Origin: Nymphon striatum
Taxonomy: Eukaryota
DNA: 15,734 bases
Reading direction: 5' to 3'
Assembly: GCA_016618385.1 (NCBI GenBank)
Contig: JABFOP010000225.1
Coordinates: 1-15,734, forward strand
Part shown: one piece after another, positions 1 to 15,734 of the stretch
Numbering within the stretch: the first letter of the stretch is position 1
Layout of the letters: each line of letters starts with the position of its first letter
Program-made: the position numbers and the translations under genes
Notes under the pieces: model-generated
What the model was told of the DNA's origin: nothing
The model's input: the letters and a program-made list of their open reading frames with translations, nothing else
Database searches by the model: none

Positions 1-584
1 ATCCCGTAAAAAATATCATGATTAAGAGCTTAACCATAACCACGAATAACAAACCACTATATCAGGTGGATTAAGGAATTATGGGTCTTGGCTTAGAAGA
101 TTTGCGGGCCTAGCTAAACATTAAAAAAGAAGTATTGCTTAGAGCAACAGTTATGAATTTATAGATTACATTTTTTTTTAGAATTAACACATTTTGTATT
201 TTAGTAACTGATAATTCTATTAACAGGACTTTTTTCAGTTTTTTTTAAATTGCACTTTTAAGCTCGACACATTTTTGAAAGCATTTAACAACAAAATTAA
301 ACAGCAGCAAATATATTACCGATCACAATTTTTGTTTCAGTTTTTTTTATTATTACGCTTCCTATCTACAAGTTTGGATATCTGCGCGTAATTAAATTTA
401 AAATGTTTTGAAAATCATCAACAAAATTGTTTTGCTATTTAAAATTGCGAGCCTCTCGTAGCTACGGGCCTTAGGCTACAGCCTATCAAGCCTATACTCT
501 ATCCGCCACTGGATATAAATAATATTCTGTTCTGAAAATGGAAAGGCTCATTTGGAATCGTCCTCCATTTCTTATTAACGTCTA

Positions 585-672
585 CAGCTTAGACGAGAGG
601 CATGTGCCACTACTTTTGGAATCGGTGCATTAATTAGCAATGAATAGCTGTAAGGCAGTTTGAGGGTTCATC
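585..672 (+). repeat. Copy of an uncharacterised dispersed repeat. Its inverted partner is at about 8800-8912.
   Basis: Seen in sequence: 'cgtctacagcttagacgagagg' and 'aatcggtgcattaattagcaatgaatagctgtaaggcag' recur as reverse complement at 8818-8912 ('ctgtaacgg...ctgtaaggtaag...aatcggtgcattaattagca'). Boundaries are approximate. Confidence 0.4.
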
Positions 673-1565
673 TCTCGACTGAACCTTTCCTATCACTTTT
701 TTTTTTATATATACACAACTCGTCCCAAGACGATCGTTCTTTAATCAGTAAAATTGTTACATAGTGTCTAGGAATTTGAATAGTTGAGTACATGTACATA
801 ATAATACAATTGTACAAAACATAGAACATTTACAATGAAAACAGTGTATATTTGACCAACTGACCAATAAAAATCTATCGTGGACCTTTACTCTTGAGCT
901 AAAACTTCATGCTAACGTGGTTCATCACAAACCAGACATCATAGCTTCACACACAAATTCTGACTCCACTATTATATTCGACTCAACTATTAGAAACGAA
1001 CTGTTGAATCAATGTAGGCACATGGAAATTTTTTTCAAGTTGTCCTAATGAGGTTTAAAATGTCATGAGGGGATAGAGCTTGGAATTACCTTTAAAATGA
1101 TACCTCATATGTCAAAATCCCTCCACCACAACCTGATTTACATCATTTTAAAGGGCGTAATTAAGGACTAATTAAACAATACATTTTACATAGAAACAGA
1201 CGAAAGAATTGTGATGGTAAAATAGTCAGAAAATAGAAGGGAAACTTTCTAACATCAATATCTTAATCCCAGAGCAATCCGATCCATCCTACCTCTAAAT
1301 CATAGTAAAATCTTCATCTAACATCATACTTCATAAATATGATGTTTATTCTTCATAATATGGCACTTAGTTTGGCCAAATAATACGTATTTTTTGTTAT
1401 TATTGATGTTGAATCAAGATGAAATTTCCAGAAAATCGGGTCAATTGAACTGGTGGAAGCAAGATGGCGGCCCCCATAACAAGATATGCGGCACAGATTT
1501 CAAAAATGGTCATTTTTGAGTTGAATAAAGCCTAAACTAAGTGTGCCTATCTTATCAATGATGTG

Positions 1566-1607
1566 CATTACTTCTTAGGTAAATCTTAGGTAAATTCTTA
1601 GGTAAAT
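1566..1607. repeat. Short tandem repeat, an 11-bp unit 'cttaggtaaat' present three times
   Basis: Seen in sequence: 'cttcttaggtaaatcttaggtaaattcttaggtaaatctgg'. Confidence 0.6.
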
Positions 1608-1740
1608 CTGGTGACTTTTATTCGACAAAATTCGAAATTTTTATCAAAAATCGGAGATCTTCCGTCAATTGTTCATTGATTTGCATCCATAGATATATAT
1701 AGAGAACTAGATAGCAGATCTATTGGTCAGACGTGAAGTA

Positions 1741-2170
1741 AATTGAAGGCGATCAACTCGGCCTAATTTTTCAATTTCACAGCATTGTTTTCAAGTGAAA
1801 GTGGAAGTTTTCAAGTTTTCAAGTGGATCGGGGACCGTATCGGGGTTTCCTAAGCTTTTGTGATGGCTTACAACTTATCAAATATCAATTTAACCTGCCT
1901 CGTTTGATTTACAGAGGGAAAACAGAGAGTCGTCCCAGTCGATTTTGATTCAAACTTGAAGGTTAAATCGAAATCGACTGGGACGACTCTCTGTTTTCCC
2001 AAATCAAACGAGGCAGGTTAAATTGATATTTGATAAGTTGTAAGCCATCACAAAAGCTCAGGAAACCCCGATACGGTCCCCGATCCACTTGAAAACTTGA
2101 AAACTTCCACTTTCACTTGAAAACAATGCTGTGAAATTGAAAAATTGGGCCGAGTTGATCGCCTCCAATT
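1741..2170. repeat. Large near-perfect palindrome (foldback-type inverted repeat). Arms are about 205 bp (1741-1946 and 1971-2170) with a central spacer of about 22 bp. Weaker inverted-repeat similarity extends to about 1723-2188.
   Basis: Seen in sequence: left arm 'aattgaaggcgatcaactcggcctaatttttcaatttcacagcattgttttcaagtgaaagtggaagttttcaagttttcaagtgg...cagagagtcgtcccagtcgattt'. The reverse complement of the right arm is 'aattggaggcgatcaactcggcccaattttt...cagagagtcgtcccagtcgattt'. There are only about 3 mismatches and one small indel across about 200 bp. Each arm carries internal 'ttttcaagt' sub-repeats. Confidence 0.9.
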
Positions 2171-2284
2171 TACTTCATCTCACCGTCAGATTTAACATGG
2201 TGGACACGCCCATTCGTCAGTCCAGTTCTCTATACAGGTCAGTGTTTGCATCAGATAAGAACTAAAATGTAGGGCAGCCTATGG

Positions 2285-2395
2285 CGTATGTAACAAGCCT
2301 TCTGATTGGTTGAAATAATGCAGAGTACAGCTCCAGCGCGATTCGGCAGCCACCGGTGCAAAAATGAGGAAATTTAAAATTTAACGTCGCTCACA
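2285..2395 (+). promoter_or_regulatory. Speculative promoter-like segment: an inverted CCAAT box ('ctgattggtt') and an A/T-rich TATA-like 'tttaaaattt' upstream of the ATG at 2455
   Basis: Seen in sequence: 'ccttctgattggttgaaataatg' at about 2298-2320 and 'aatttaaaatttaacg' at about 2368-2385. This GC-richer block lies immediately after the palindrome and upstream of a 66-aa ORF (2455-2655). No homology is recognised for that ORF. Confidence 0.15.
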
Positions 2396-3010
2396 CAGTT
2401 CTCAGGCACAGATACACATGAACAGATATGCGGTGATTTCCAAGTGCCTACTCAATGTCTAAAGCGAAGGAAGAGAAAATAAATAATTACGAAGCACTCC
2501 TGCCAATATGGTTCGGTGCACGTGGAGCTGTAGGTCCAGAAGCTATTTCTATTCTATATAATAAATTCAATTTGAAGAATGACTTTTTAAATGAAATCTC
2601 CATAAAAATACTTAAAACATGCTTACAGCTATATTTTCATGTAATTCACGCTTGATTTTTAATGTTCATTTTTATAATGTTCATTTATTAAAATTTCTAT
2701 AATATGTTTTATCATTTTATTCATATTATCTCGCCATTGTTATCATTTTTCTTTTTTGTCCTTTCTTTTCTTTTCATTGATTTGTGTTATTTTCATGACA
2801 ATCTATTTTTTTGTATGGCTTTGTAAGCTGCTTTTTATATAAATAAAAAGATTTTTCTTCTCTCTAGTCTGAGACAGCTGATGTATAACGTTTAAGATTG
2901 AATTTGTGGATCAAAACGCCAAACAATAATATCCTTCTTCCTCAATCTTTCTGAAAGTCTGAATAGGAAGATAGAGGACGACTGAAAATGAGAATTTAAG
3001 CTTAAACCCA

Positions 3011-3042
3011 GCAAAACAAACAAACAAACAAACAAAATCCAT
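3011..3042. repeat. Microsatellite (CAAA)n, about 6 units
   Basis: Seen in sequence: 'gcaaaacaaacaaacaaacaaacaaaatcc'. Confidence 0.85.
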
Positions 3043-3469
3043 CTTCTTAGACACTAAGAAGAAGAGATTATCGAAAAGAAAAATCACATGAAGAAAGGTC
3101 CCTCAACCTACACTCCGGCAAACCAGTGTGAAAGCCACTTGTCTAAGCTATAGATATTTTATACACACGTATAACACTTCAGTTTGCAAAAGTGCTGTAC
3201 TGTGTGCATTATTTTGTGATAGAATAAGTTTGGTTTCTAGCTTTTGCCAAACCTATGCTATTCTCCAACCATTCTGAAAGTTCATGTAAGAGGATGGAAA
3301 AATACTCCAACACTAAAGAAAGCCCAGATTGTTGAGTGGTATAAGATCTTTCTGGGCCAGATTGACCCAGGCCCGAATTTCATTCCACCCTTTCATCCTT
3401 TACGTTGTGTATTTATCATACGTTCCTCTCTGAAACTTGATGCATGTTGGCTTAGGATATAGAGGATAT

Positions 3470-3598
3470 GGAATGAGTGCCCGTTGGATACATCAATATC
3501 ATATCCAACGGGAACGAATTTCGTATTCTGTTTATCACATAACTGGCAGATAGCTTTGAAAGTAATTAAAAATATTTATATAAAATAGATTCAGTTGC
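3470..3598. mobile_element. Right-end fragment of a MITE-like element. It comprises the terminal inverted repeat of the 'ataaacagaata' family plus the internal 'gaatgagtgcccgttgg' hairpin module.
   Basis: Seen in sequence: 'gaatttcgtattctgtttatcacataactggcagatagctttgaaagtaattaaaaatatttatataaaatagattcag' is the reverse complement of the left-TIR sequence found at 10440-10520 and 10965-11055. It is preceded by the perfect 11-bp-stem hairpin 'cccgttggata catcaatatcat atccaacggg'. Confidence 0.5.
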
Positions 3599-4397
3599 TC
3601 TTTTTTTTTTCAACACAGCGATTTCAAATTTACGTGATTTTAAAGGAAGAAAGAAAACATGCATTAATACAGTGTAAGCTACTGAAAAAAAAAAAAGAAA
3701 AAGTTGAGTTTCAAGTTGCACAAAAGAAAATTGTTAATTTACACTAGGATATTTTGAAGTTTATTGAACTTAGAGAAGGAGGATCTATATTGGATATAGC
3801 TCCTTCTTCTCCAAGGTTATTAAACATGTGACAAAATTAATTCTTATCGATAATTGGTTATGCTTACTAAACCCATGTGTGTGGAGTGCTTTTAGTCGAT
3901 GATTGGTGAAACTTTCAAGAAACGTCAAATGTATTGCATACCACTGAATATCGCCTCTTTTATGTGATAAAAAAATGTACACAGATATCCAAGTTAACAT
4001 ACATTACCTTATTACCTCTGAACGTTAAAGAACTAACTTAGTTGTTCAAAGAAGAATAGAGCGGAGGACCCTGTGAATTTTCCTTCATGTAACGCGATCT
4101 ATGACATTAAATAGCTATAGATCGTTTCATCACACAACTTCTATAAATATTGTAAATATCGTAAACACGTCCTATAATGTAATAATAATAATAGCCTTTA
4201 CCACACGTTAAATTGTCTTTTACAGTAGAGTCGAATCTCATTTCCCCAATTTCATTCATCTTCAGTTTAGATAACAAAAAAAAAATTCATTTTGTCAGAT
4301 ATGTCTAGTCAACATTGAACCGAACACTCAATTTTTTACTTTTGAAACTTAATAGCCCAGGGGCCTACACTACTTCCCTCCCCTCCACAATGTTATC

Positions 4398-4600
4398 GTG
4401 TGAATGCTTCCCTGTATCAAATTGAATCAATTTTAAAATCTACTTTAATTAATAAATTCATTTTGTTGTATGATAAACCGAATATAAAATTCGTGACTGT
4501 TGCTTATGGGATATATGAAACTCGCCAACTTTGTTTTAATTTCAGCTCGTTCCATATATCTCATAAACAACGGGCACTCATTCTATGTCCTCTATTTATT
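4398..4600. mobile_element. Left-end fragment of the same MITE-like family. The inner TIR is diverged and the internal 'caacgggcactcattctatgtcctctat' module is present.
   Basis: Seen in sequence: 'aattgaatcaattttaaaatctactttaattaataaattcatttt' matches the TIR outer part at 10440 and 10965. 'caacgggcactcattctatgtcctctat' (4569-4596) matches 'tgcccgttgctcattctatatcctctatg' (11063-11090) and the reverse complement of 'gaatgagtgcccgttgg' (3476-3492). Confidence 0.45.
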
Positions 4601-5444
4601 GTAATATCGATCAATCTTCCTGTTTCCTTTCAATCAAAATGCCAGTGTCTAGCGTATGAAGAATGGAGCTTTTTAAATAGTAGCTGCTCTTTCAAAAGTT
4701 CACAAACTGTATAATTTTCTTGGACTCAATGTCGCCACTACACTTGAAGGTTATTTATAGAGCTCAGGAAAAGCGGCAATTCCATATAGATTTTATTGTT
4801 TCGGATCAAACAATCGCTTATATTTTCAATTTATCCCTGTTACATCCATGCTTCATCTCACATTTTAAAATACAATTTTTATTTCTTAACTTATCTGTAA
4901 ATATTTTAATGATAAAATCGATAAGATTTCTTGAGGACGGAGTATTGAACATTTTCGACGCTTAAACTGCCAAACTTTTGATATATGATTGAAGAATAAG
5001 ATGGTAAATATTGTCAACATCTGCCAGAAATATTACCAGCAAAACTTTTAGAGCGAAGACTTATCGGATCGTGTCTGCAAAAGAAGACTGACATTAAGGA
5101 AACCGTTTTCATAGCTGAGTCATATGGCAGCTATGGTTGGTCATGAATAAGAATATCTAAAGCGTTTAGCATCAAAGGCAAACTCGTGGACGATATCCAA
5201 GAAAGGACAATAAGCCATTAAGGTACACAGCAACATATTGCAAAACAACTTGTAATGGTCGTTTAAGACATTTGAATCACTCTATAAAGTATCTTCTGAA
5301 CAAATCCCAATAGCTATGAATTACAGCTCATTGTCATTTTTAGCAACTGATATCCATAGCTATCTGTGACCGCTGAGACTAGAATAGAGAACATATTTCT
5401 GGGCAGCAAAAGTGAACTAAAAATTATGAGTCAATATTAACACC

Positions 5445-6110
5445 CCCCCCCACTCAAGTACATTTAGGGGCCGCATGCGCGTTCCGATTTTTTCGGGAAA
5501 GGCTGGGGTATTTCCAAGGAAAAACTCGGGTGAAAAATCCCAGAAAAATCAAAAATAGGGGGTTAATTTTATGATCGAACCCCGAGAAATTAAAAAAAAG
5601 GGGGATTTATTTCAAAGATGCATGCCCGAGTTAATTAGTTAGTTAGTTCCTACATAGTTGCCAAGTTTTTGCTCCCAATTTCACCTATCCTTTAAATTGA
5701 AACTTAACTCATGCTTATATGAAGGGGGTAAAGGGGGTGCCAAATGGCATAAATCGCATATAAAATCGAAATTATAATGAATTACCATGCACCATCATTA
5801 GGCAGAAAATAGAACCGAAGGCTCATAACTGTGCTTTTGTACAGGTGTGGCTTGCACACATATTCTTGGGTCTTATAAATTCTTGATATTTTTGATACCC
5901 TAGAAAGGGGGTTAAAATATTTGAATCCCTTAGGAAAGGGGTACCTGGATCCCTGAAACCCCTTAGAAAGGGAGTGGAAAATGTGATAAAAGCCCGTGAT
6001 AGGGGATAGAAAAATTGGAAAATTCCTTAGATAGGGGGTGCTTTGAAATATTGGGTACACGCTGTGGCCCCCTCCTGTTTGCTGGGACTGGGAGAGCCGG
6101 GTATTAAAAG
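5445..6110. repeat. G-run-rich degenerate tandem and interspersed repeat block. Units are about 25-35 bp of the form 'cc(c)ttagRaaggggg...', and a C9 run at 5445-5453 marks the left edge.
   Basis: Seen in sequence: 5880-6045 'ccctagaaagggggttaaaatatttgaatccc ttaggaaaggggtacctggatccctgaaacccc ttagaaagggagtggaaaatgtgataaaagcccgtga taggggatagaaaaattggaaaattcc ttagatagggggtgc'. Similar G4-5 / C3-5 punctuated units occur at 5470-5620 ('ttaggggccgc...ggctggggta...aatagggggtt...aaagggggat') and 5715-5740 ('gaagggggtaaagggggtgcc'). Confidence 0.5.
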
Positions 6111-6384
6111 CACCCAGTGGCAGGTGTAATTATTGAATTCCTGTGATAACCTGCACTTAATAAGTTGATATCTTCTTTCATAAACGTCAAGAACAACAAT
6201 GGGGTAGATCGATTAACATGAAAATTGCCGTGCAAAACCCTGCTTTCTGTTGCCTAACAACATCTAAAAGGTGCCATCAATTAATCACTAGAGAAAAACT
6301 GCCAGTTATTATTATTTTCTTTTATTTCCAAGGAATTACCTACGGGAACAAGTTCCCTTTACAGGGTCCGTAATAATCTGTATA

Positions 6385-6680
6385 TAATGTAAGTGTACCA
6401 CTTCACCGGGAAGTTGTCACCCTACTCTTGTTCGAATAGTGAAGTGGGTTCTATAACGTGCAGAAGGAATGGCTATCCTTTACACGGAACCTCCATTTAA
6501 CGTCCTATCTGAGGGACAGAGTATTTTCTTTCTAAAACCAACCTGCATCCAGTATCAGAGAGGAGAGCACGATAATACACAACGTAAAGGGAGAACAAGT
6601 GGTGGGGTTCGAATGAGGTTCGAACCTGGGTAATTAAAGCCGAGAATACAGATGTTAACCGCTCAGCCACTGCGCTCTTA
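6385..6680 (-). mobile_element. tRNA-derived SINE, copy 1, near full length. The Pol III A-box and B-box are in the 5' head.
   Basis: Seen in sequence: the reverse complement gives 'gagcgcagtggctgagcggttaac...cccaggttcgaacctcattcgaacc' (A-box-like TGGCTGAGCGG, B-box GGTTCGAACC). The body that follows, '...ctgatactggatgcaggttggttttagaaagaaaatactctgtccctcagataggacg...cactattcgaacaag', is shared with copies at 12250-12512 and 14333-14607. Boundaries are approximate to within 15 bp. Confidence 0.7.
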
Positions 6681-7618
6681 CAGCTCTCACTAATGCAATT
6701 CTACAATTCTCAAAGCCTGAAAACTTCAAGCCAAAAATGTCACTTTCGTGATCTAAAATCAATTATTTGTGAGATGATACAGTTGTGTATTCTTAATATT
6801 TCCTGCTCTCAGTAGTGATGTTGGTGAAAAATGCACTGCAAACTTAACTATATAAATTCATAACATTATACTATGTTCGAGTGAATCTTACATTTAAACA
6901 GTATAGTAATCGCAAATACGTTTAAAAGAAAGAGATGGAATATTGAGAAATATAGTGAGCAGCGTAAGTTTCAAAACGTTTCTGGAAATTTTCAAAATAA
7001 TTCGGAGCAACAGCAATTTTTTTCCTTGGTTTATATTTTGTTTGGTTTACATTTGAAAACTGAATAGTACTGCAGATGAATAATCTATACAGGGTTGATA
7101 TATCATCCTGAAAAGGTTTTCGATTTCATCATTTTGATGATACCAAAAAGTGTCGTCTATCAATAAATTCGTTTTCTTGAAGATATCATTCCACGCAGTG
7201 AAGAGATTAGATTATTCGCGTCAATGCCGTCAAATTCCCTTTCGTCTCTTTTCAGATATCTTATATACTCTAAAGAAACTCAAAGAGCTCAATATGTCGA
7301 AGTGATACGGCGGTGATGACTTATGGTGCCAACAATGGTTAAATGTGGATCGCGTTTGCAGCCTTACTCTGAAGTACCTACATTTTATGAATCTATCTAC
7401 GTACGTATAAAAGCATCTAGAACGATCAATTTCTATGAAAAAACATAAAAAACGTGGCACAGCATCGTTATATGTTATATGATTAATCAAGGAATATAAA
7501 TTTTCAGGAAGAGCAAACTTATATGGACTGCGAAGGCTTTTATGAAAATACCGTTCCTCTTATAACGAAGTGAATTGATGACAAAGAATAAAACAAACAT
7601 TTCATAAGCTAGGGAACC

Positions 7619-8385
7619 ATATGTGACCCGCCATAGCAAAATGAGTCGTAATTCGCACATTTACGAACTGAGCTATAGCCGATTAAAGCAAAGAAAACTT
7701 AAAATTTTCGATTTTTACGTATCTATATAAAATAAAACCCGATAATTAATTTAATGTAAAGGTTCAGTTGATTAAACCACGCTAACTTACTTAAATTTAT
7801 GTTTTTCCCGAGTTGATATTGAAACTATAATATAAAACAATGCATGAAATTAGTCAAATTACCTCATTTTCGATCATTAAACACTTTTCCGCGGAAACCC
7901 CATGAAAATTTAACATCTACAGAATCGTCTCTTTGTCTAGTTTCTAAATATATAAGGCATGTTCGGGTTTTTCCCAATATACACCAATTATCGCTCGGTA
8001 TTTCCACCGGTATTCCATAAAAAAAATGATGCTTGTTGCTAAGATCAAACCACTCCCATCGCTGATTGGCTCCCGTGGCCCACGTGACGAGAATCGCTTA
8101 CTATGTTCAGTGCTATTCATTTGATGACAGACGACAGTTCTCGTTTCACAACTTTTCACAACTTACAATTATGATGATGTTTAAGATCAATTATCTCAGA
8201 ATATTTTTCTTTTTAACTCCGATACACTGGCATCTTTAAAATGTCATAATTCGGTAACCGGTTGATGGATTGAAAAGCTGTTTGGATTTAATGAAAGCTG
8301 ACATTCTTATCTTTCTATTGGTATTTATAACTCCAAATCACAATTTTGCGAATTACGACTCATTTTGCTATGGTGGGTCACATAT
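7619..8385. mobile_element. Nonautonomous DNA-transposon-like element (767 bp) with 39-bp terminal inverted repeats and no transposase ORF
   Basis: Seen in sequence: left TIR 7619-7657 'atatgtgacccgccatagcaaaatgagtcgtaattcgca'. Right TIR 8347-8385 'tgcgaattacgactcattttgctatggtgggtcacatat', whose reverse complement is 'atatgtgacccaccatagcaaaatgagtcgtaattcgca'. That is 38 of 39 identical. The interior has only a 71-aa ORF with no recognisable domain. The interior also carries 'gctgattggctcccgtggcccacgtgac' (inverted CCAAT plus CACGTG E-box). Confidence 0.7.
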
Positions 8386-8799
8386 CATTATTATATAGGT
8401 TCACTTCAATGATGCTGCATGGTAACGCTCTAGGAAATGAGAACTACAATAGTTTTCATTAAGAGGTACTAAACTAAAATTAGATAGATACAGTACACAA
8501 CGTCACAGATCCTAAAACAAGAGTGAGCGTGTAAATTCACTCCGAATATCCCACCAAGAACTATTAAAACCGAAGGAGATTCTGTTAAAGACAATCTTCA
8601 GACTATATAAATGAATATGCATTTATTATTATTATTATTAGGTCAGTTTTACTATCAACTATTATTGTTAAACTTTGAAACATTTTGTTTTGTTAGGTTT
8701 AACAACCCACTGATGCCATGCTATAAAAGCTCATTCGGAGTTATCCTCATCTTCCTATTTAGACTTTTAAAAGGGTTGGAAAATAAAGGGATTATCTAT

Positions 8800-8912
8800 A
8801 GGAAAGATTCAGCTGAGGGAAGAACCTCCATCTTACCTTACAGCAAATCAGTGCTAATTAATGCACCGATTTCTCAAACAGAGGTGAAACCCTCTCGTCT
8901 AAGCTGTAACGG
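8800..8912 (-). repeat. Inverted copy of the uncharacterised dispersed repeat seen at 585-672
   Basis: Seen in sequence: the reverse complement of 8818-8912 contains 'aatcggtgcattaattagcactgatttgctgtaaggtaag' and 'cgttacagcttagacgagaggg', matching 586-672. It overlaps the poly-Leu ORF 8611-9015, so that ORF is not a credible gene. Confidence 0.4.
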
Positions 8913-9361
8913 TAGGAAACATTTTTGCGCATTGTTGTGTTGCAACATCCTGGTCCAACTCTCCAGAACCGAAATCCACAGTTCAAGTATACAGGTCTAC
9001 CATCGTGGAGCTTGAGATCAATAGGGCGGTTATTCTACCGATCTCAGTGGACATAAAAATGTGTTATAAAACGATTAACGGCGAGAGATGTTTTTAATGG
9101 GCAACAGATTTTAAGTGACAATAATCTTGAACAATGACAAATGGCTCTTAATAGTTTTCTTAATGGTTTTTCACTTTACTCAGATGTTTTTATTGCATTT
9201 GACTTGACCGGGGGCTTCAATAGTGTCATTTAATTTAATTACGAGCATTTTAAAGAGGCAACAGATCGGGAAATGCTTTTAATGATTTGGCCAGGGGAGG
9301 CTCTTTGATAAAACCTTACAATTTTCTTTATACATTTGTTCAAACTGAATCTATTTTAAAT

Positions 9362-9418
9362 TAATTTTAATTAATTTTCAAAGCTATCTATTGATTATGT
9401 GATAAACAGAACACCAAA
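9362..9418. mobile_element. Short degenerate fragment of the MITE-like TIR ('...ttttcaaagctatct...gtgataaacagaa')
   Basis: Seen in sequence: 'aattaattttcaaagctatctattgattatgtgataaacagaacacc' resembles the inner TIR 'ttcattttcaaagctacctgccggttgtgcgataaacagaata'. Confidence 0.3.
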
Positions 9419-10092
9419 CTCGACCACGTCGTATACAGAATATATGACGGGAACTCATCACGTATCCTCTATATACTTTTTTCTTGAAACCAGTCCCTGT
9501 ATTTGAAAGAGGCACCCCCCATAAAAAATCTTGGCTACGGGCATGACAACATTGTTTACCCATAGCGGACCTTGGATAAGCCGTTGGCCAAGTTTCATTA
9601 GTTACTAATTTGTTCCGGGTATAAACCAATTTTTACTGTAAACAATATATACGTAGTAACTAACGATCGAGAATAGAAAAGACCAACATTAACTAACATA
9701 GCCTTCATAGTTCTTCGTTCTATTTTACTTGCTATCAAGCATTTTATTAATTACTTCATTAGCTGCTTATTTGAACTGATTCTCTATCTCTTCATTGTCT
9801 TCTAAAATGTGGAGAATAGCTTCAAAATCATCTCCGAAGAAAAACAAATTGTTCATGTCAGCCATACTATAGTGTAAAATGATCTATGCTTATGAACGAT
9901 CAGTGTCACGTGATGGTGCAATTCAACCTCGAACTCCTGACAATAGGCAGTCTTTGAAGTTTGCAGGGTTTCATAACCAGTCTCCTCTATTAACTATGAT
10001 ATGATTAACGCTAGTTTTCCAACGGCAAGGTAGATTATTAGTAGAGATGGCGATGTTGAAAAGAGCTACTTAAAATTATGATATACAATACT

Positions 10093-11055
10093 TTATCGCA
10101 CAACCTTGACTTTATTGCATGCATACGGAGTTCTTATATTTCCTGTATAAGGACACGTCCCTATATTGGTGTTGATTACAGACACAGGGAGTCTGAGATT
10201 GTGAATGTTGCTTACCACAAATTTATTTTTCCTCTGTTTTTTTTTTTCCTTTCAAACACGTCGCTTCTGTATTCAGACATGAGTCATTTTTGTTTTTATC
10301 GTAACTTATCTCTCAATATATCACTCTTTCTGTTTCTCTTCTTTTCTCTATTTCATACTTTCTAACCGAGTTCTCGGAATTCATTGAAGTGTTGAAACTT
10401 TTCCCCCTCTCAACAATTTATTTTCTTTGTTTTAGCTTGACTGGCACAAAACGAATCAATTTTAAAATCTATTTTAATTAATAAATTCATTTTCAAAGCT
10501 ACCTGCCGGTTGTGCGATAAACAGAATATTTATCGCGCAACCTTGACTTTATTGCATGCATTTGGAGTTCGTATATTTCTTGTATAAGGACACGTCCCTA
10601 TATTGGTGTCGATTACAGACAGGGGAAGTCTGAGATGTTGAATGTTTATTTCTGTAAAAATGAGCTATTTTTTTTTCTACCATAAAATATTTTTCATAAC
10701 TTTCTATAATGTATAATCAAGCTATATATTTTAAAAAAAATAAAGTTATTATCTGTAAAAATGAGCTATTTTTCGTGTACTATGAATTTATTTAACAGCT
10801 GTTTTAGACCAAATTCTTTATTTCGTAACGTATTCTCTCCCAACACTCATCTTGAATTTCTTTTACATCGAGCTTCCAAACTTCACTGTCTCAAATTACA
10901 TCAAAATGTTGAAACTTTTCTTCTTTCCCTCTCAACAATTTATTAATTTTTTTTTAGCTTGACTGGCACAAAATGAATCAATTTTAAAATCTATTTTAAT
11001 TAATAAATTCATTTTCGAAGCTATCTGTCGGTTGTGCGATAAACAGAATATTAAA
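10093..11055 (+). repeat. Two-copy tandem segmental duplication, unit 1 about 10093-10520 and unit 2 about 10523-11055. Each unit is a 120-bp block ('cgcRcaaccttgactttattgcatgcat...gtctgagat') followed by a divergent spacer, then a 'gttgaaacttttc...ctctcaacaattta...agcttgactggcacaaaa' block, then the MITE left TIR.
   Basis: Seen in sequence: 10093-10213 and 10523-10640 are about 90% identical. 10380-10517 and 10905-11050 are about 90% identical. The junction 'ggttgtgcgataaa cagaata tttatcgcgcaacc' (10505-10540) is itself a 14-bp-stem palindrome. Confidence 0.65.
10440..10520 (+). mobile_element. Solo left TIR of the MITE-like family, truncated at the duplication junction
   Basis: Seen in sequence: 'gaatcaattttaaaatctattttaattaataaattcattttcaaagctacctgccggttgtgcgataaacagaata' is nearly identical to 10965-11052. 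Confidence 0.55.
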
Positions 11056-11210
11056 TTTGTGCCCGTTGCTCATTCTATATCCTCTATGTGCGTTTTTTTT
11101 TCATGTAAGATATTTTACAGTGGCTCATTGGATATTATGACTTAACTGTGAAGAATTTCGTATTCTGTTTATCACATAACCGACAGATAGCTTAGCAACT
11201 TAATTCAATT
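10965..11210 (+). mobile_element. The most complete MITE-like copy (about 245 bp). It has a left TIR, the internal 'tgcccgttgctcattctatatcctctatg' module, and a right TIR.
   Basis: Seen in sequence: left 'gaatcaattttaaaatctattttaattaataaattcattttcgaagctatctgtcggttgtgcgataaacagaata'. Right (11157-11210) 'gaatttcgtattctgtttatcacataaccgacagatagcttagcaacttaattcaatttgatac'. The reverse complement of the inner 33 bp matches the left TIR with about 2 mismatches. No coding capacity. TSD not resolved. Confidence 0.55.
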
Positions 11211-11777
11211 TGATACATGCAATGTAAGGTACCGGAGCGGAGAAAAAAGTATTTTACCATTTAGAAGTTGAATGAAGCCCCTGGGCAAAGCAGTTAATTA
11301 CTCTATTAGTTTAATTCTCTCTTTTTTTTTTCTTTCAGCCCTCTCCCATGTTGTTGTTTTGATAATGATAACTCTTGGAGGAGGAGAGAGAGGGGCCCTT
11401 CTACTTACACAATATTGTTAGGGTAAACAATTAATCTTCCCCTCTCAACTGAAAAAGAGAATTTAGCCTGAGTAGGAAAAATTCAAAGTAAACAAAAACA
11501 GCAGATTATTATGGAACGTGTCTCCATATTATATGTACGACATGCCCATAAGCACTGAATAAAGCCCAAGTACTGTGACAAATATATATGTATATATGTA
11601 TAAATATGTTGTTGTATCTCCAAGTTCCAATACGGGAGCTTCTTACAGATAATATCTATTGGAATTGCTAAGGAAAGGGGTTTGAGTTGAGGAAAGCAAC
11701 TTTCTTTTTGAAAGATTTTCTGTTCCAACTACATTTTTCCCAAGGTCCTCCACATCCGCAGTTCATACACCTTGGGT

Positions 11778-11860
11778 GGGAAGAGTAGTGAGGGTTTAAT
11801 TCGAACTCAAAACTCCAAGGTTGATGAGCGGGGAGCGAACACTCTAACCATCTGACTTCC
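11778..11860 (-). other. Degenerate tRNA-like segment with Pol III box-like motifs. It may be a tRNA pseudogene or the head of an unrelated SINE.
   Basis: Seen in sequence: the reverse complement 'ggaagtcagatggttagagtgttcgctccccgctcatcaaccttggagttttgagttcgaattaaaccctcactactcttccc' has an A-box-like 'tggttagagtg', a B-box-like 'agttcgaatt', and partial (5-bp) acceptor complementarity GGAAG/CTTCC. No convincing cloverleaf could be folded by hand. Confidence 0.2.
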
Positions 11861-12249
11861 TTATCGAGACATACATAATTTTTTTTTTTATAATGTAAAA
11901 ACCAATTTTTAATCAACCATCCAAACCAAGACCATTCAAATTTAACTTACATGACTCAAACTATTTTAAATATCAAACATTCAGTGTTTTTTGCCTTTCA
12001 TTTGAAAGAGTTGGTCTTTGTTTATAGTTAAATAAGCACATTCATATATGTGGTACGTGCCTGAAAAATTGTGCATTAAAAAATTTCATTCATCAAAGAC
12101 AAAATCACAAATATATTGCATTAAATTCGCATGGGTTTATGGCAAGCTGGAGGTCATATCAATGCGTCCGAATGCTGTGCTTCTCTGTTAGATTACAAGC
12201 CATGGTGGGAGAATCCTCTTTCTCACACCGCAGTCAAGAATTGGCACAA

Positions 12250-12512
12250 CTCACAGGTGCTACACAACACTGAGACCTTACACCCTAATGTTGTTCGAAT
12301 AGTGAAATGTGTTCTTTAACATGCAGAGGGTGTAACACTCCTCTACATGAGACCTCTGTTAATGTCCTATCCGAGGGACGGAGTATTTTCTCTCTAAAAC
12401 CAGCCTGCATTCAGTATCAGAGAGGAGAGCACAAGAATACACAACATAAAGGATGAAAGAGTGGAGGTGAACCTGGTCATTCAAGCTCAGAACAGATACC
12501 TTAACCATTCAG
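12250..12512 (-). mobile_element. tRNA-derived SINE, copy 2. The body is intact and the tRNA head is degenerate, with a deletion across the B-box.
   Basis: Seen in sequence: 'ttgttcgaatagtgaaatgtgttctttaacatgcagagggtg...cctatccgagggacggagtattttctctctaaaaccagcctgcattcagtatcagagaggagagcacaagaatacacaac' is collinear with 6421-6590 and 14360-14510. The head reads 'gagtggaggtgaacctggtcattc...' and lacks GGTTCGAA. Confidence 0.6.
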
Positions 12513-12965
12513 CCTGCTTTATTCATTCAACACTGAATTAAAGCCCCTTTTGGATTACTCTATTTTGAAATTAAGAAATGTTTACCTCACAAGGGGAGAC
12601 ATCTTCCTTTTTAATGACTATTTCGAAAGGAAATACTAAAGAAGATTTGTTAACTTTAATTAACTGTAAATATATTTTTCTATTAATTTACTTAATCAAT
12701 TTATTATAACCTTGCAATACATTACTTTAAAATTGCTTTTCTACTTTTTCCCTACGTTCTCTAATATAATTGGCGGCTATTAATCTACTTAGTAACAGAT
12801 TTTTACCTATAAATAAATTTCAGCAGTGACTTATACAATAACCTGACTGTGCGCGAAGTAAACACGGACCAACCTAGTAATGTATAATAATATAAATGGG
12901 TTGTTATACAATATTGTCTTTACATTTACAAAGTTTATGACAAGTATATTTTTTTATAATCTTAT

Positions 12966-13832
12966 TTATTTATTTTGCTCAGACATTTCTCTAGCACGCA
13001 GTACAGCAGCTTCAAAGGCATCCATCATGGCTGATTTTAGTCCTCCTCTTGTAAGAGCATGGAATCCATGAATTGTTGTTCCTCCGGGAGAAAATATGCA
13101 ATCTGCTAATTCTGCAGGGTGCTTCCCACTTTCTTGAATCACTTTAGAAGCACCTAGTGCTACTTGAGGAGTGAGTTTAGAAGCAATGTGTACAGGCAGT
13201 CCCATTTTCACGGCACCATATGTTAATCCTTGAATACATTCATACATAAAAGCAGTTCCACTCCCTAAGGCTGCCATCAACTCAATTTGAGAATCGGTCA
13301 TTTCTTCACAAATAGCAATACCTTCAAATAACCCAAACAACAGATTTTTGTAATTAGTATTAGTTGTAGAAGATAAACAAATGCCACATATGCCTGCACC
13401 CACCTCTATTGGCACAGTTGGCATGAGGCGGACAAAATTCAATTTCAAATTGGCCTTTCCTAGCCAATTTACATGAGAGTCCATTGAAACACCAGCAGCA
13501 ACACTAACTATTACCTTATCAGAAGTATTTCGAATATTCAACTTTGACAACACATCTTTCATCAAGTATGGCTTAACTGCTAAGAAGACAACATCGCTGT
13601 TGTCAAAAACTACTTGATTATCATGAATAAAATTAACACCAAGTTGGTCGTAAACATCGCGATTACGGTCCGTCGGAGCACTTACAGTTAACCGGTCTTT
13701 ACTGACCTGCTTTTTCAGAAGAATCCCTTTAATTAAAGATCTTGCCATGTTTCCTGCTCCAATAAAACCAATATTCATGTCATTTTGAATAAAGTTGGCG
13801 ATTGACTCTTTGTCTTTGATGATGTTTTCCAT
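12966..13832 (-). CDS. PYCR3: Pyrroline-5-carboxylate reductase, PYCR3/PYCRL-like, 288 aa. It is a single exon and the coordinates include the TAA stop.
   Basis: Seen in sequence: an uninterrupted ORF that begins 'MENIIKDKESIANFIQNDMNIGFIGAGNMARS...'. Motifs: the NAD(P)-binding GFIGAGNMA; 'SAPTDRN'; 'VVFLAVKP'; 'VSVAAGVS'; 'GAVKMGLP'; and the C-terminal 'SPGGTTIHGFHALTRGGLKSAMMDAFEAAVLRAREMS'. Established knowledge: these match the P5C reductase family, and 'SAPTDRN' plus the C-terminal block are closest to the animal PYCR3 pattern. The ATG at 13830-13832 has a Kozak-like context 'cagaATGg' and an in-frame TAA 8 codons upstream. The ORF-track start at 13856 is a GTG. AATAAA is formed by the final N-K codons and overlaps the stop codon. 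Confidence 0.85.
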   Translation of the reverse strand: MENIIKDKESIANFIQNDMNIGFIGAGNMARSLIKGILLKKQVSKDRLTVSAPTDRNRDVYDQLGVNFIHDNQVVFDNSDVVFLAVKPYLMKDVLSKLNIRNTSDKVIVSVAAGVSMDSHVNWLGKANLKLNFVRLMPTVPIEVGAGICGICLSSTTNTNYKNLLFGLFEGIAICEEMTDSQIELMAALGSGTAFMYECIQGLTYGAVKMGLPVHIASKLTPQVALGASKVIQESGKHPAELADCIFSPGGTTIHGFHALTRGGLKSAMMDAFEAAVLRAREMSEQNK

Positions 13833-13887
13833 TCTGACGATTGGGTAAATGAACACTTAGCTGCCACAGAATCACCAATACATATTA

Positions 13888-14134
13888 CAGGGTGTTTCAA
13901 AATAAACAGTGCACTTAATAATGCTGTAAAAAGAAACTTTTTACGACTAAGTTATTAAAATAGAACAATTAATTTGGTTTATATAGAGCGCAGTGGCTGA
14001 GTGGTTATAATAAATGGTTAAAATAACATCTTTATTCTGGGCGTGAATAATCCAGGTTCGAATCTCATTCGAACCCTACACTCTTTCACCCTTAACGTTG
14101 TATATTCTCGTGCTCGTTTCTCTGATATTAGATG
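13888..14134 (+). repeat. Plus arm of a large inverted duplication. It is a non-SINE leader of about 95 bp plus the SINE tRNA head (SINE 5' fragment, copy 4, 13986-14134).
   Basis: Seen in sequence: 'cagggtgtttcaaaataaacagtgcacttaataatg...aatttggtttatatagagcgcagtggctgagtggtt...ccaggttcgaatctcattcgaaccctacactctttcacccttaacgttgtatattctcgtgctcgtttctctgatattagatg'. Its reverse-complement counterpart is at 14471-14682. Confidence 0.8.
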
Positions 14135-14332
14135 TGAATTACATGTATTTAGTCCTTCCTATCTATAGTCTTCGTTTTTCTTTTCACCGTGACAGGTGTC
14201 AACTTTAAGTCAGAAATTTTTGCACTATTCCATTGACCACTCTGGAATAAGTAGTGGGCTCATGGCCTATTATCAAAGGTCAACAGAGTTCGAATAAGTC
14301 CTCTGCTAAGACTCAGACGGCTTTAATGAGTT

Positions 14333-14607
14333 ATGCAGGTGCTTTACGTCACAAGGACCTTCTACAATAGTGAAATGTGTTCTTTAACGTGCAGATAGTG
14401 TGACTCTTCCTACACAGGGCCTCCATGTCCTATCCGAAGGACCGCATATTTTCCCTCTAAAACCAGCATGCATCTAATATCAGAAAGGAGAGCACGAGAA
14501 TACACAAAGTTAAGGGCGAAAGAGTGTAGGGTTCGAGTCAGATTCGAACATGGGTCATTCAAATCCAGAATAAAGATCGTATAACCAACCACTCAGCCAC
14601 CACGCTC
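14333..14607 (-). mobile_element. tRNA-derived SINE, copy 3, near full length. Its head is the minus arm of the inverted duplication.
   Basis: Seen in sequence: the reverse complement of 14520-14607 is 'gagcgtggtggctgagtggttggttatacgatctttattctggatttgaatgacccatgttcgaatctgactcgaaccctacactc' (A- and B-boxes). The body 14360-14515 is collinear with copies 1 and 2. Confidence 0.7.
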
Positions 14608-14682
14608 TATATAAACCAAATTATTTGTTCATTTTTTTTTAAACATCATTATTAAGTGCACTGTTTATTTTGAAACACCCTG
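14471..14682 (-). repeat. Minus arm of the inverted duplication (partner of 13888-14134). The spacer between the arms is 14135-14470.
   Basis: Seen in sequence: the reverse complement of 14586-14682 is 'cagggtgtttcaaaataaacagtgcacttaataatgatgtttaaaaaaaaatgaacaaataatttggtttatatagagcg', matching 13888-13990 apart from one indel of about 35 bp. The similarity continues through the SINE head to 'gatattagatg'. Confidence 0.8.
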
Positions 14683-15091
14683 TAGCCCTACATTTAAAAA
14701 TGGGTCTGGCCATACCTTTTAACATATTATATCATGGACAAGACAAGAATATAACATAAAGGCAAAGTAGTCTTTTGATAATTGGTGTAGAAAATATTGG
14801 AAGATTCAAAGAAATAGTCAAATTTATTTCTTCAATTTATCAGAAATTTATTTGTAACATTAGTTTAATTTACACATTTTGAATTAATTAATTTTTCTGT
14901 ATTAAAATAAATTAATAATAAAAGAAGTAGAAAAGAAATAGGCTGCCTTATGACAGATGGCACTTTTCTACTACAAAAAACTTACTTCAGTTTTGGAATG
15001 ATGGCACATTTCACCTGCAATATGCCATACCTAGGAATTATCTGGTATCAGGAAATGTGTCTAGAAACAGTGAAAATGAAGCTCACTATCG

Positions 15092-15109
15092 GTAAAAAAA
15101 AAAAAAAAA
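15092..15109. repeat. Poly(A) homopolymer of about 18 nt
   Basis: Seen in sequence: 'ggtaaaaaaaaaaaaaaaaaagag'. Confidence 0.9.
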
Positions 15110-15653
15110 AAGAGAATACAGCAACTTTTCAAGTACTGGTACTATATTACTATGGCCTTAGTGAATTAAGGATTGCAGTAATATAATACACATTGACATC
15201 ATAATTTTTCTTAAAAATGCTTTGAAAAATTTGAATATAAATTTATATAACAAAATTATAAAATCAACATTCACTTTTGATGATAAATATGATTGATATT
15301 AATGACTAGTGATCAATTTTACTGGGTAAAATATAAAAAAAATATGATAAAATAAAATAAAAAGTAATAATAAATATTAAATCATTACAGATTCAAAAAT
15401 TGAAGCCAGTAAGGAATCCACTGCCTTCACGGACCAATGCACCTCATTTTTGTGAGGAAGGGCAAATACTGGAATAAAAGTAATCAGTTCTGATCAATCT
15501 AACTATTATTCTCCATTGTCAAGAAGAAAAAGCACACCATGGAACATTGGGGAAGACAGTGTCAACAACTGGCAAGAGTGTAGGAGACTTATATCATGTT
15601 AAACCCCATAAGTGGAAATACAGACTTTAATTGAAGATGATGGCAAACTATTT

Positions 15654-15717
15654 CAAACTAGAATTTGAAATTTCAATTACAAATTATAAATATTGAAATT
15701 TCAAATTCTGGTTTGAA
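15654..15717. repeat. Hairpin-forming inverted repeat. Stems are 24 bp with 1 mismatch and the loop is 14 nt. It sits at the window edge.
   Basis: Seen in sequence: 'caaactagaatttgaaatttcaat tacaaattataaat attgaaatttcaaattctggtttg'. Confidence 0.8.
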
Positions 15718-15734
15718 AAATGTGGCTATCATCT

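Follow-up and report, generated by a model that had tools for sequence, protein, structure and literature searches.

Few metabolic enzymes are as uniformly conserved as the pyrroline-5-carboxylate (P5C) reductases, and the human members PYCR1, PYCR2, and PYCR3 have been studied as disease and cancer genes. PYCR3 (PYCRL) is the third animal P5C reductase besides PYCR1 and PYCR2, and is reported to be cytosolic in humans. In PYCR1, the carboxylate of a ligand in the proline site is bound by the loop between helices K and L, through Thr238 and Ser233, while the ring of the ligand touches the kink between helices H and I in the partner protomer (PMC7939384). The corresponding Ser and Thr of the Medicago enzyme also bind proline, and in that enzyme the Thr of an MPNT motif reaches the nicotinamide through a water molecule (PMC4626632). 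Within the human decamer, the pairs D190-K228 and R199-D229 form inter-unit (inter-dimer) salt bridges (PMC4522605). Here we describe a homolog in which the kink, the MPN motif, and the salt-bridge positions are all altered. Its gene lies at 12966-13832, on the minus strand, in 15,734 nucleotides of DNA from Nymphon striatum (contig JABFOP010000225.1 of assembly GCA_016618385.1, positions 1 to 15,734 of the forward strand); this whole stretch is referred to below as the window. On balance we favor the view that the gene is functional, has a single exon, belongs to the PYCR3 branch, and is maintained by selection; it would derive from a cDNA and would still encode an imine reductase, altered in pocket and assembly.

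The reading frame runs without interruption from an ATG at 13832-13830 to a TAA at 12968-12966 (867 nt, 288 codons plus the stop), and is by far the longest open reading frame (ORF) of the window. Upstream of the ATG, the frame stays open only as far as a GTG at 13856. The product has both domains expected of the family. An N-terminal Rossmann domain for NAD(P) binding is recognized by PF03807 (F420_oxidored, 2.7e-18) and contains the stretch GFIGAGNMA, with G25 and G27 invariant; a C-terminal all-helical dimerization domain is recognized by PF14748 (P5CR_dimer, 2.5e-27) and corresponds to helices between residues 180 and 286 of an AlphaFold2 model. The NCBIfam equivalog model for proC, TIGR00112, scores the protein at 208.5 bits, a narrow margin above the curated cut-off of 196.75. 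Solved P5C reductases are matched by sequence with E-values from 4e-47 to 1e-41, the top match being the plant enzyme from Medicago (5BSE, 3.6e-47) and human PYCR1 and PYCR2 following at about 1e-42. The predicted structure has a mean predicted local distance difference test (pLDDT) score of 89.4 and a predicted template modeling (pTM) score of 0.84, and Foldseek aligns it to PYCR1 with TM-scores of 0.81-0.85. By domains, fold, and curated score, the gene is a member of the P5C reductase family. Compared with human PYCR1 and PYCR2 (5UAU, 2IZZ, 6LHM), the fold is the same (Foldseek TM-scores of 0.79-0.86) and the equivalents of Ser233 and Thr238 are kept, but sequence identity is just 31-33%.

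Within the family, the closest named proteins are animal PYCR3 sequences, which in the protein-cluster search are 37-43% identical over 92-100% of the length; the named matches among the best 120 are all from animals, and nearly all are labeled PYCR3. Like animal PYCR3, the window protein combines the two-domain architecture and fold described above with a SAPTDRN-type motif after strand 2, retains GxGxxA, AVKP, Arg135, and SPGGTT, and is short, without the long C-terminal tail of PYCR1 and PYCR2. The initial annotation of this DNA had proposed a complete PYCR3-type P5C reductase encoded in one exon, an identification that the ORF, both Pfam domains, TIGR00112, and the best named matches bear out. 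The motifs quoted there are also all present (SAPTDRN, RLMPTVP, GSGTAF, GLTYGAVKMGLP, SPGGTTIHGFHAL, and AAVLRAREMS). The gene had been called the only credible one in the window, and this holds at the level tested: other stop-free stretches of at least 55 residues do not look coding, the ten longest of them have no significant Pfam match, and a tblastn search of the window revealed no further PYCR fragment.

Relatives were sought in 5.8 billion protein clusters and, exhaustively with HMMER, among 1.84 billion cluster representatives. The cluster search found only two close relatives, both from Logan assemblies of Sequence Read Archive (SRA) runs. P0001 (285 residues, 84% identity) is encoded on contig L001 from SRR24188319, for which there is a near-identical contig, L007, from SRR24188320; P0002 (289 residues, 62% identity) is encoded on contigs L002 and L003, from SRR30938156 and SRR30938155. 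Beyond these two, every match in either search is at most 43% identical, and the HMMER scan, which collected 17,416 family members from the 1.84 billion representatives, added no further member of the clade. The small clade to which the window gene belongs has thus been seen so far only in the Nymphon striatum window and two other species.

In neighbor-joining (NJ) trees of 43 taxa, all 200 bootstrap replicates recover the window protein and its two close relatives as a clade, which sits on a long stem inside the metazoan PYCR3-like sequences. Because of this placement, and because the top named matches are all PYCR3, sequence comparison assigns the gene to the PYCR3 branch rather than to PYCR1/2 or to microbial proC. 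The sister group of the trio is a set of echinoderm PYCR3-like proteins (Acanthaster XP_022104500, Amphiura XP_072041818, and Diadema XP_072175678) in 96 of the 200 replicates, a weakly supported grouping that may reflect long-branch attraction. These echinoderm proteins are likewise divergent members of the PYCR3 type, and KPY and "AVL.ARE"-like stretches are common to them and the window protein; they differ in being only about 39-41% identical to it.

One other high-scoring sequence, P0125 (676 residues, 363 bits), seemingly the second match of the HMMER scan, was considered for membership in the clade and rejected as a triple tandem repeat of the canonical domain. It strings together two truncated P5C reductases and one complete one, all canonical, and has no relation to the window clade; it is probably either a tandem duplication or an artifact of assembly or annotation.

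Selection was measured as dN/dS by the Nei-Gojobori method on codon alignments. Between the window gene and that on L001, dN is 0.085 and dS 0.63, for a dN/dS of 0.135. Comparison of either of these with L002 or L003 gives a dN of about 0.31 with dS saturated, and dN/dS between 0.11 and 0.15. The unusual motifs that had been pointed out earlier are identical in all three species, and the relatives share the N-terminus ME[NS][IV]IKD as well as the Kozak-like context around the start codon, with A at -3 and G at +4. The gene is intact, is under purifying selection, and has been maintained in at least three species. The earlier suggestion of a decaying paralog therefore has to be given up, since dN/dS is low against both relatives and the deviant motifs are shared by all three species.

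To place the unusual residues in a family-wide context, the trio was aligned with a diverse set of 144 P5C reductases, which combined representatives of clusters at 50% identity (from animals, or unnamed and derived from metagenomes or SRA runs) with selected PYCR3 sequences, and residues were counted in each column. The initial annotation had singled out the NADPH- and P5C-binding residues as worth checking, and the cofactor- and carboxylate-binding motifs turn out to be retained: the Rossmann glycines G22, G25, and G27, the pair K87-P88, R135, and the loop from S248 to T253 (SPGGTT, codons 248-253, at 13074-13091 on the minus strand), which corresponds to the loop that holds the substrate carboxylate in solved structures (PMC7939384, PMC4626632). 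H238 is retained as well.

The same annotation had noted deviations from the family consensus, and the column counts make these not only real but stronger than was then known. Position 139, the Asn of MPN, is Thr in all three clade members (codons 137-139, the "MPT" of RLMPTVP, at 13416-13424 on the minus strand); among the 144 other sequences it is Asn in 139, Ser in three, Gln in two, and Thr in none. Position 173 is Ala in the trio and Gly in 140 of the others. In the helix H/I kink (codons 187-196, AALGSGTAFM, at 13245-13274 on the minus strand), the residue before G190 is deleted from the trio, a position occupied by Ser in 109 of the 144 and by another residue in most of the rest, and position 193 is Thr where 128 of the 144 have Pro. 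The deletion and the Pro-to-Thr change fall exactly in the kink, at the equivalents of human S174 and P178, and the equivalents of the neighboring T171 and G172 are both Ala in the clade, so that all four of these human residues are changed or deleted. Where the family hallmark reads S-G-S-G-P-A-(Y/F), the trio reads -GSGTAF. Judged by these columns, the clade lacks two of the sequence hallmarks of P5C reductases, the Asn of R-x-M-P-N and the SGSGPA kink.

A second group of changes falls at positions that form salt bridges in the human decamer. Codon 205 (13218-13220, minus strand) encodes Tyr in place of the Asp equivalent to human D190, in a column that is Asp or Glu in 136 of 144 sequences; codon 243 (13104-13106, minus strand) encodes Ala in place of its partner, human K228, in a column that is Lys or Arg in 139. 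An acid/base pair at the two positions is present in 132 of the 144, as against Tyr/Ala in the trio. Position 214, equivalent to human R199, is Val in the window protein and Leu in the two relatives, while 128 of 144 sequences have Arg or Lys. The window protein thus differs from human PYCR1 and PYCR2 in having neither the D190-K228 pair nor R199. Elsewhere, position 246 is Ile in the trio and Val in 141 of the others. Of the 28 columns with 90% conservation or more, 22 are kept by all three members of the trio, 27-28 by canonical controls, and 24-25 by the echinoderm PYCR3-like proteins.

The echinoderm proteins have altered kinks of their own, GGAACAW in Acanthaster (P0126), GGAIAYM in Amphiura (P0153), and AGAGPAW in Diadema (P0164), and that of Acanthaster has Ser at the MPN Asn. 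The window clade may thus not be alone in having weaker constraint on the kink side of the pocket. The salt-bridge columns show a difference, however, in that Acanthaster P0126, the sole echinoderm sequence inspected there, keeps both the Asp and the Lys.

To see how these changes might bear on structure, we ran DSSP on AlphaFold models, with a mammalian PYCR3 model computed from the same alignment as control. The window model shows one continuous helix over residues 180-209, whereas the equivalent helix of the control is broken at residue 179 (helices 167-178 and 180-197). The window protein and its two relatives, alone in the alignment, also carry an N-terminal extension (residues 1-20, encoded at 13770-13832 on the minus strand). 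In the model it contributes an extra helix at residues 8-17, ahead of the first Rossmann strand and with pLDDT above 90, which has no counterpart in the canonical PYCR3 control. Set against animal PYCR3 as a whole, then, the window protein is distinguished by Thr at the MPN Asn, by the kink deletion with its Pro-to-Thr change, by Tyr/Ala in place of the acid/base pair, and by an extension of about 20 residues that is predicted to be helical.

The gene differs from its relatives in structure as well as in sequence. That PYCR genes are normally multi-exon, as the initial annotation assumed, is true of the two PYCR3-type genes we inspected: PYCR3 of Gryllus longicercus has seven coding exons over 8.6 kb, and the PYCR3-like gene of Acanthaster planci has six over 5.1 kb. 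Exon boundaries in the two genes roughly coincide in at least two places, near residues 33-36 and 115-118. Since cricket and starfish genes are both multi-exon with roughly shared boundaries, the introns are ancestral and the single coding exon of the window gene is derived. An origin from a cDNA is plausible as the most economical account of losing every intron at once. As for the two relatives, the contigs that paired runs yield for each have starts only 2-4 nt apart, as do contigs of canonical PYCR3 transcripts from other run pairs, and because of this behavior they are probably cDNA, in which case the genes are expressed and the leaders of 194-301 nt would be 5' untranslated sequence.

The history that we favor would begin with a multi-exon PYCR3-type gene whose spliced mRNA was copied, either through retroposition or through cDNA-mediated replacement, before the three species split. 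The encoded protein would still bind NAD(P)H and the carboxylate of an imino acid, because GxGxxA, KP, Arg135, and SPGGTT are all kept. The ring side of the substrate pocket would have been remodeled through the one-residue deletion and Pro-to-Thr change in the kink and the Asn-to-Thr change in MPN, and the protein would have lost residues of the human inter-dimer salt bridges, both partners of D190-K228 as well as the R199 of the R199-D229 bridge. The most likely product is still a P5C-type, NAD(P)H-dependent imine reductase, with an altered oligomeric state, altered kinetics, or an altered substrate preference. We regard a retrogene origin taken by itself as plausible, with the chances about evenly balanced; neofunctionalization is a plausible and reasonable reading of the residue changes, though one to which we give less than even chances. 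The gene resembles functional retrogenes in that its coding sequence lacks introns although the family is multi-exon, and in the purifying selection and the changes at sites conserved in the presumed parent that came afterwards. It differs from them in showing no poly(A) remnant or target-site duplication, so that its membership in this class is inferred. Literature searches turned up no relevant account of a PYCR retrogene or of a PYCR3 gene without introns.

What makes the clade informative is that the MPN Asn, the kink that touches the ligand ring, and the two residues of a decamer salt bridge have been replaced together under clear purifying selection. It offers a natural experiment on which "invariant" residues of the family serve catalysis and which serve assembly, and may illustrate how the role of a metabolic retrogene can shift, in what is otherwise an ordinary, recognizable family member.

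Several observations weigh against this history. When the surroundings of the gene were checked for marks of retroposition, as the initial annotation had suggested, there was no poly(A) tract, no target-site duplication, and no flanking direct repeat; the only A-run is an A7, 15 nt past the stop, and it is absent from the relatives. Such marks are expected to be missing, since the insertion would be older than the split from P0002, at which dS is saturated. The contigs of the relatives may be either cDNA or genomic, and so may speak either for expression or for a lack of introns in those species. The unbroken helix at the kink depends on DSSP assignments from AlphaFold models, in a region of lower pLDDT (about 83), and this and the extra N-terminal helix are suggestive only. 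Lastly, the clade is 34-42% identical to PYCR3-type proteins of other phyla, which are 39-51% identical among themselves; this divergence is only about five points beyond the usual range between phyla, and could be that of the lineage's ordinary ortholog.

That last possibility deserves the most attention among the alternatives, and we consider it a real, if lesser, prospect. The gene would then be the regular PYCR3 ortholog of its lineage, its introns lost in place or the lineage being intron-poor; the enzyme would still make proline, and the odd residues would be tolerated drift. An identity to other phyla only slightly under the norm fits this account, as do the passing of the curated proC threshold, the intact cofactor- and carboxylate-binding motifs, and the behavior of the echinoderm PYCR3-like proteins, which also lose four of 28-29 near-invariant columns. 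Drift is harder to reconcile with the columns themselves: Thr at the MPN Asn occurs in none of the 144 diverse family members, and Tyr/Ala is not among the ten commonest residue pairs at columns 205 and 243, where 132 of 144 keep an acid/base pair. Six or seven introns would all have to be lost. Moreover, a long stem followed by strong constraint within the clade is the pattern typical of a paralog that has shifted and then been stabilized. A canonical PYCR3 from the relatives' own SRA runs was also looked for; the two Logan-only canonical candidates checked both came from other runs.

Rather unlikely, in our estimation, is a more far-reaching version of events, in which a lineage-restricted PYCR3 retrogene has been re-tooled, with a straightened ring helix, for another cyclic imino acid or for a regulatory role. 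Under this version the protein would probably be a free dimer, because the salt bridges of the decamer would be lacking. Were it true, the clade would represent a so far undescribed functional subfamily within the P5C reductase fold, with a substrate carrying, for example, a six-membered or substituted ring.

A processed pseudogene or decaying retrocopy, its frame open by chance, is suggested by the single exon, the repeat-rich surroundings, and the deviations at conserved sites, but is effectively refuted by an intact 288-codon frame, by dN/dS of 0.11-0.15 over a dS of at least 0.63, by deviant residues that are identical across three species along with a conserved start context and N-terminus, and by a predicted model that folds with high confidence. 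Equally improbable is an origin from a bacterial proC, whether through horizontal transfer or as contamination, which would account for the missing introns. In its favor one might cite the plant enzyme that is the top sequence match in PDB, and an unnamed 271-residue protein from a JGI record (P0016, assumed to be microbial) that is about 40% identical and so on a par with animal PYCR3. Against it, the named matches among the best 120 are all animal, SAPTDRN is present in the window protein and absent from P0016, the protein nests among metazoan PYCR3-like sequences in the NJ trees, AT-rich eukaryotic repeats with short interspersed elements (SINEs) and elements resembling miniature inverted-repeat transposable elements (MITEs) lie on both sides of the gene on the same contig, and the Kozak-like start is conserved in the relatives.

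The two ends of the coding sequence show some conservation of their own. Upstream of the ATG, similarity to L001 extends for 33 nt by blastn, and to about 55 nt by eye, defining a conserved proximal 5' non-coding stretch (13833-13885, minus strand) with the motif GCAGCTA (13864-13858) followed by TCAT. The motif recurs in L002, where a TATATAG precedes it by about 33 nt. GCAGCTA...TCAT could be an initiator, or else the acceptor of an intron in the 5' untranslated region (UTR), a reading made possible by the pyrimidine-rich runs that precede the motif in L001 and L002. The splice acceptor that had been proposed directly at the ATG fares less well, since the closest relative has no AG at that position and similarity continues through the site and 33 nt or more beyond it. 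L001 and L007, which come from the same species, are polymorphic for a 6-bp indel (TTGCCC) about 40 nt before the ATG, and the window has the shorter allele. On L007, automatic annotation had placed the start at a TTG farther upstream, and the resulting product of 302 residues (P0121) is spurious. At the other end, an AATAAA formed by the last two codons (Asn-Lys, AAT AAA; 12969-12974, minus strand), just before the stop, is conserved in all three species; it may be a putative poly(A) signal inside the coding end, or simply reflect conservation of a QNK C-terminus.

The window as a whole is AT-rich (GC 0.27-0.42) and repeat-rich. Immediately beyond the conserved 5' stretch, starting 54 nt upstream of the ATG, is a foldback or MITE-like insertion of about 795 bp at 13886-14684, with ends TA/CAGGGTG...CACCCTG/TA and inverted repeats 85-92% complementary. 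The TA duplication at its ends is in the style of Tc1/mariner elements. Each arm carries a copy of a tRNA-derived SINE, and the insertion may lie within the promoter or 5' UTR of the gene. On its far side, local alignment to L001 gives a score of 32, inside the range from shuffled sequences (mean 28, maximum 49), and blastn of the relatives' flanks against the window gives chance matches only. Four copies of the SINE family were delineated by direct-repeat analysis: at 6418-6680 (minus strand), at 12281 to about 12510 (minus strand), roughly 455-685 nt downstream of the stop, and in the foldback at 13985 to about 14250 (plus strand) and 14366-14612 (minus strand). In this family a head reading GAGCGCAGTGGCTGAGYGGTTAA...GGTTCGAAYC precedes a body of about 190 nt, and neither ARAGORN nor Rfam calls the copies as tRNAs. 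The earlier description of the gene as flanked by SINEs is essentially right, with one copy downstream of the stop and an inverted pair upstream of the ATG.

Elsewhere in the window, a scan for bacterial promoters and terminators gave counts at shuffle expectation and is irrelevant here, and the Rfam scan gave only sub-threshold miRNA-like matches, on hairpin repeats. A possibly transposon-derived peptide is encoded at 2437-2652, and a search with it returned no match. A near-perfect hairpin at 1734-2177 has arms of 177 nt that are 98% complementary and a 90-nt spacer with a 42-nt palindrome (1916-2000); its only Rfam matches are miRNA-like and sub-threshold, and it looks like a young foldback repeat. 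At 7619-8385, terminal inverted repeats of 44 nt, 93% complementary and 679 nt apart, delimit what looks like a MITE. Local duplications of 118-133 nt, with 91-92% identity and spacings of 437 and 522 nt, occupy 10092-11066, and pieces related to them recur at 3506-3586, 4406-4464, 9360-9435, and 11144-11223.

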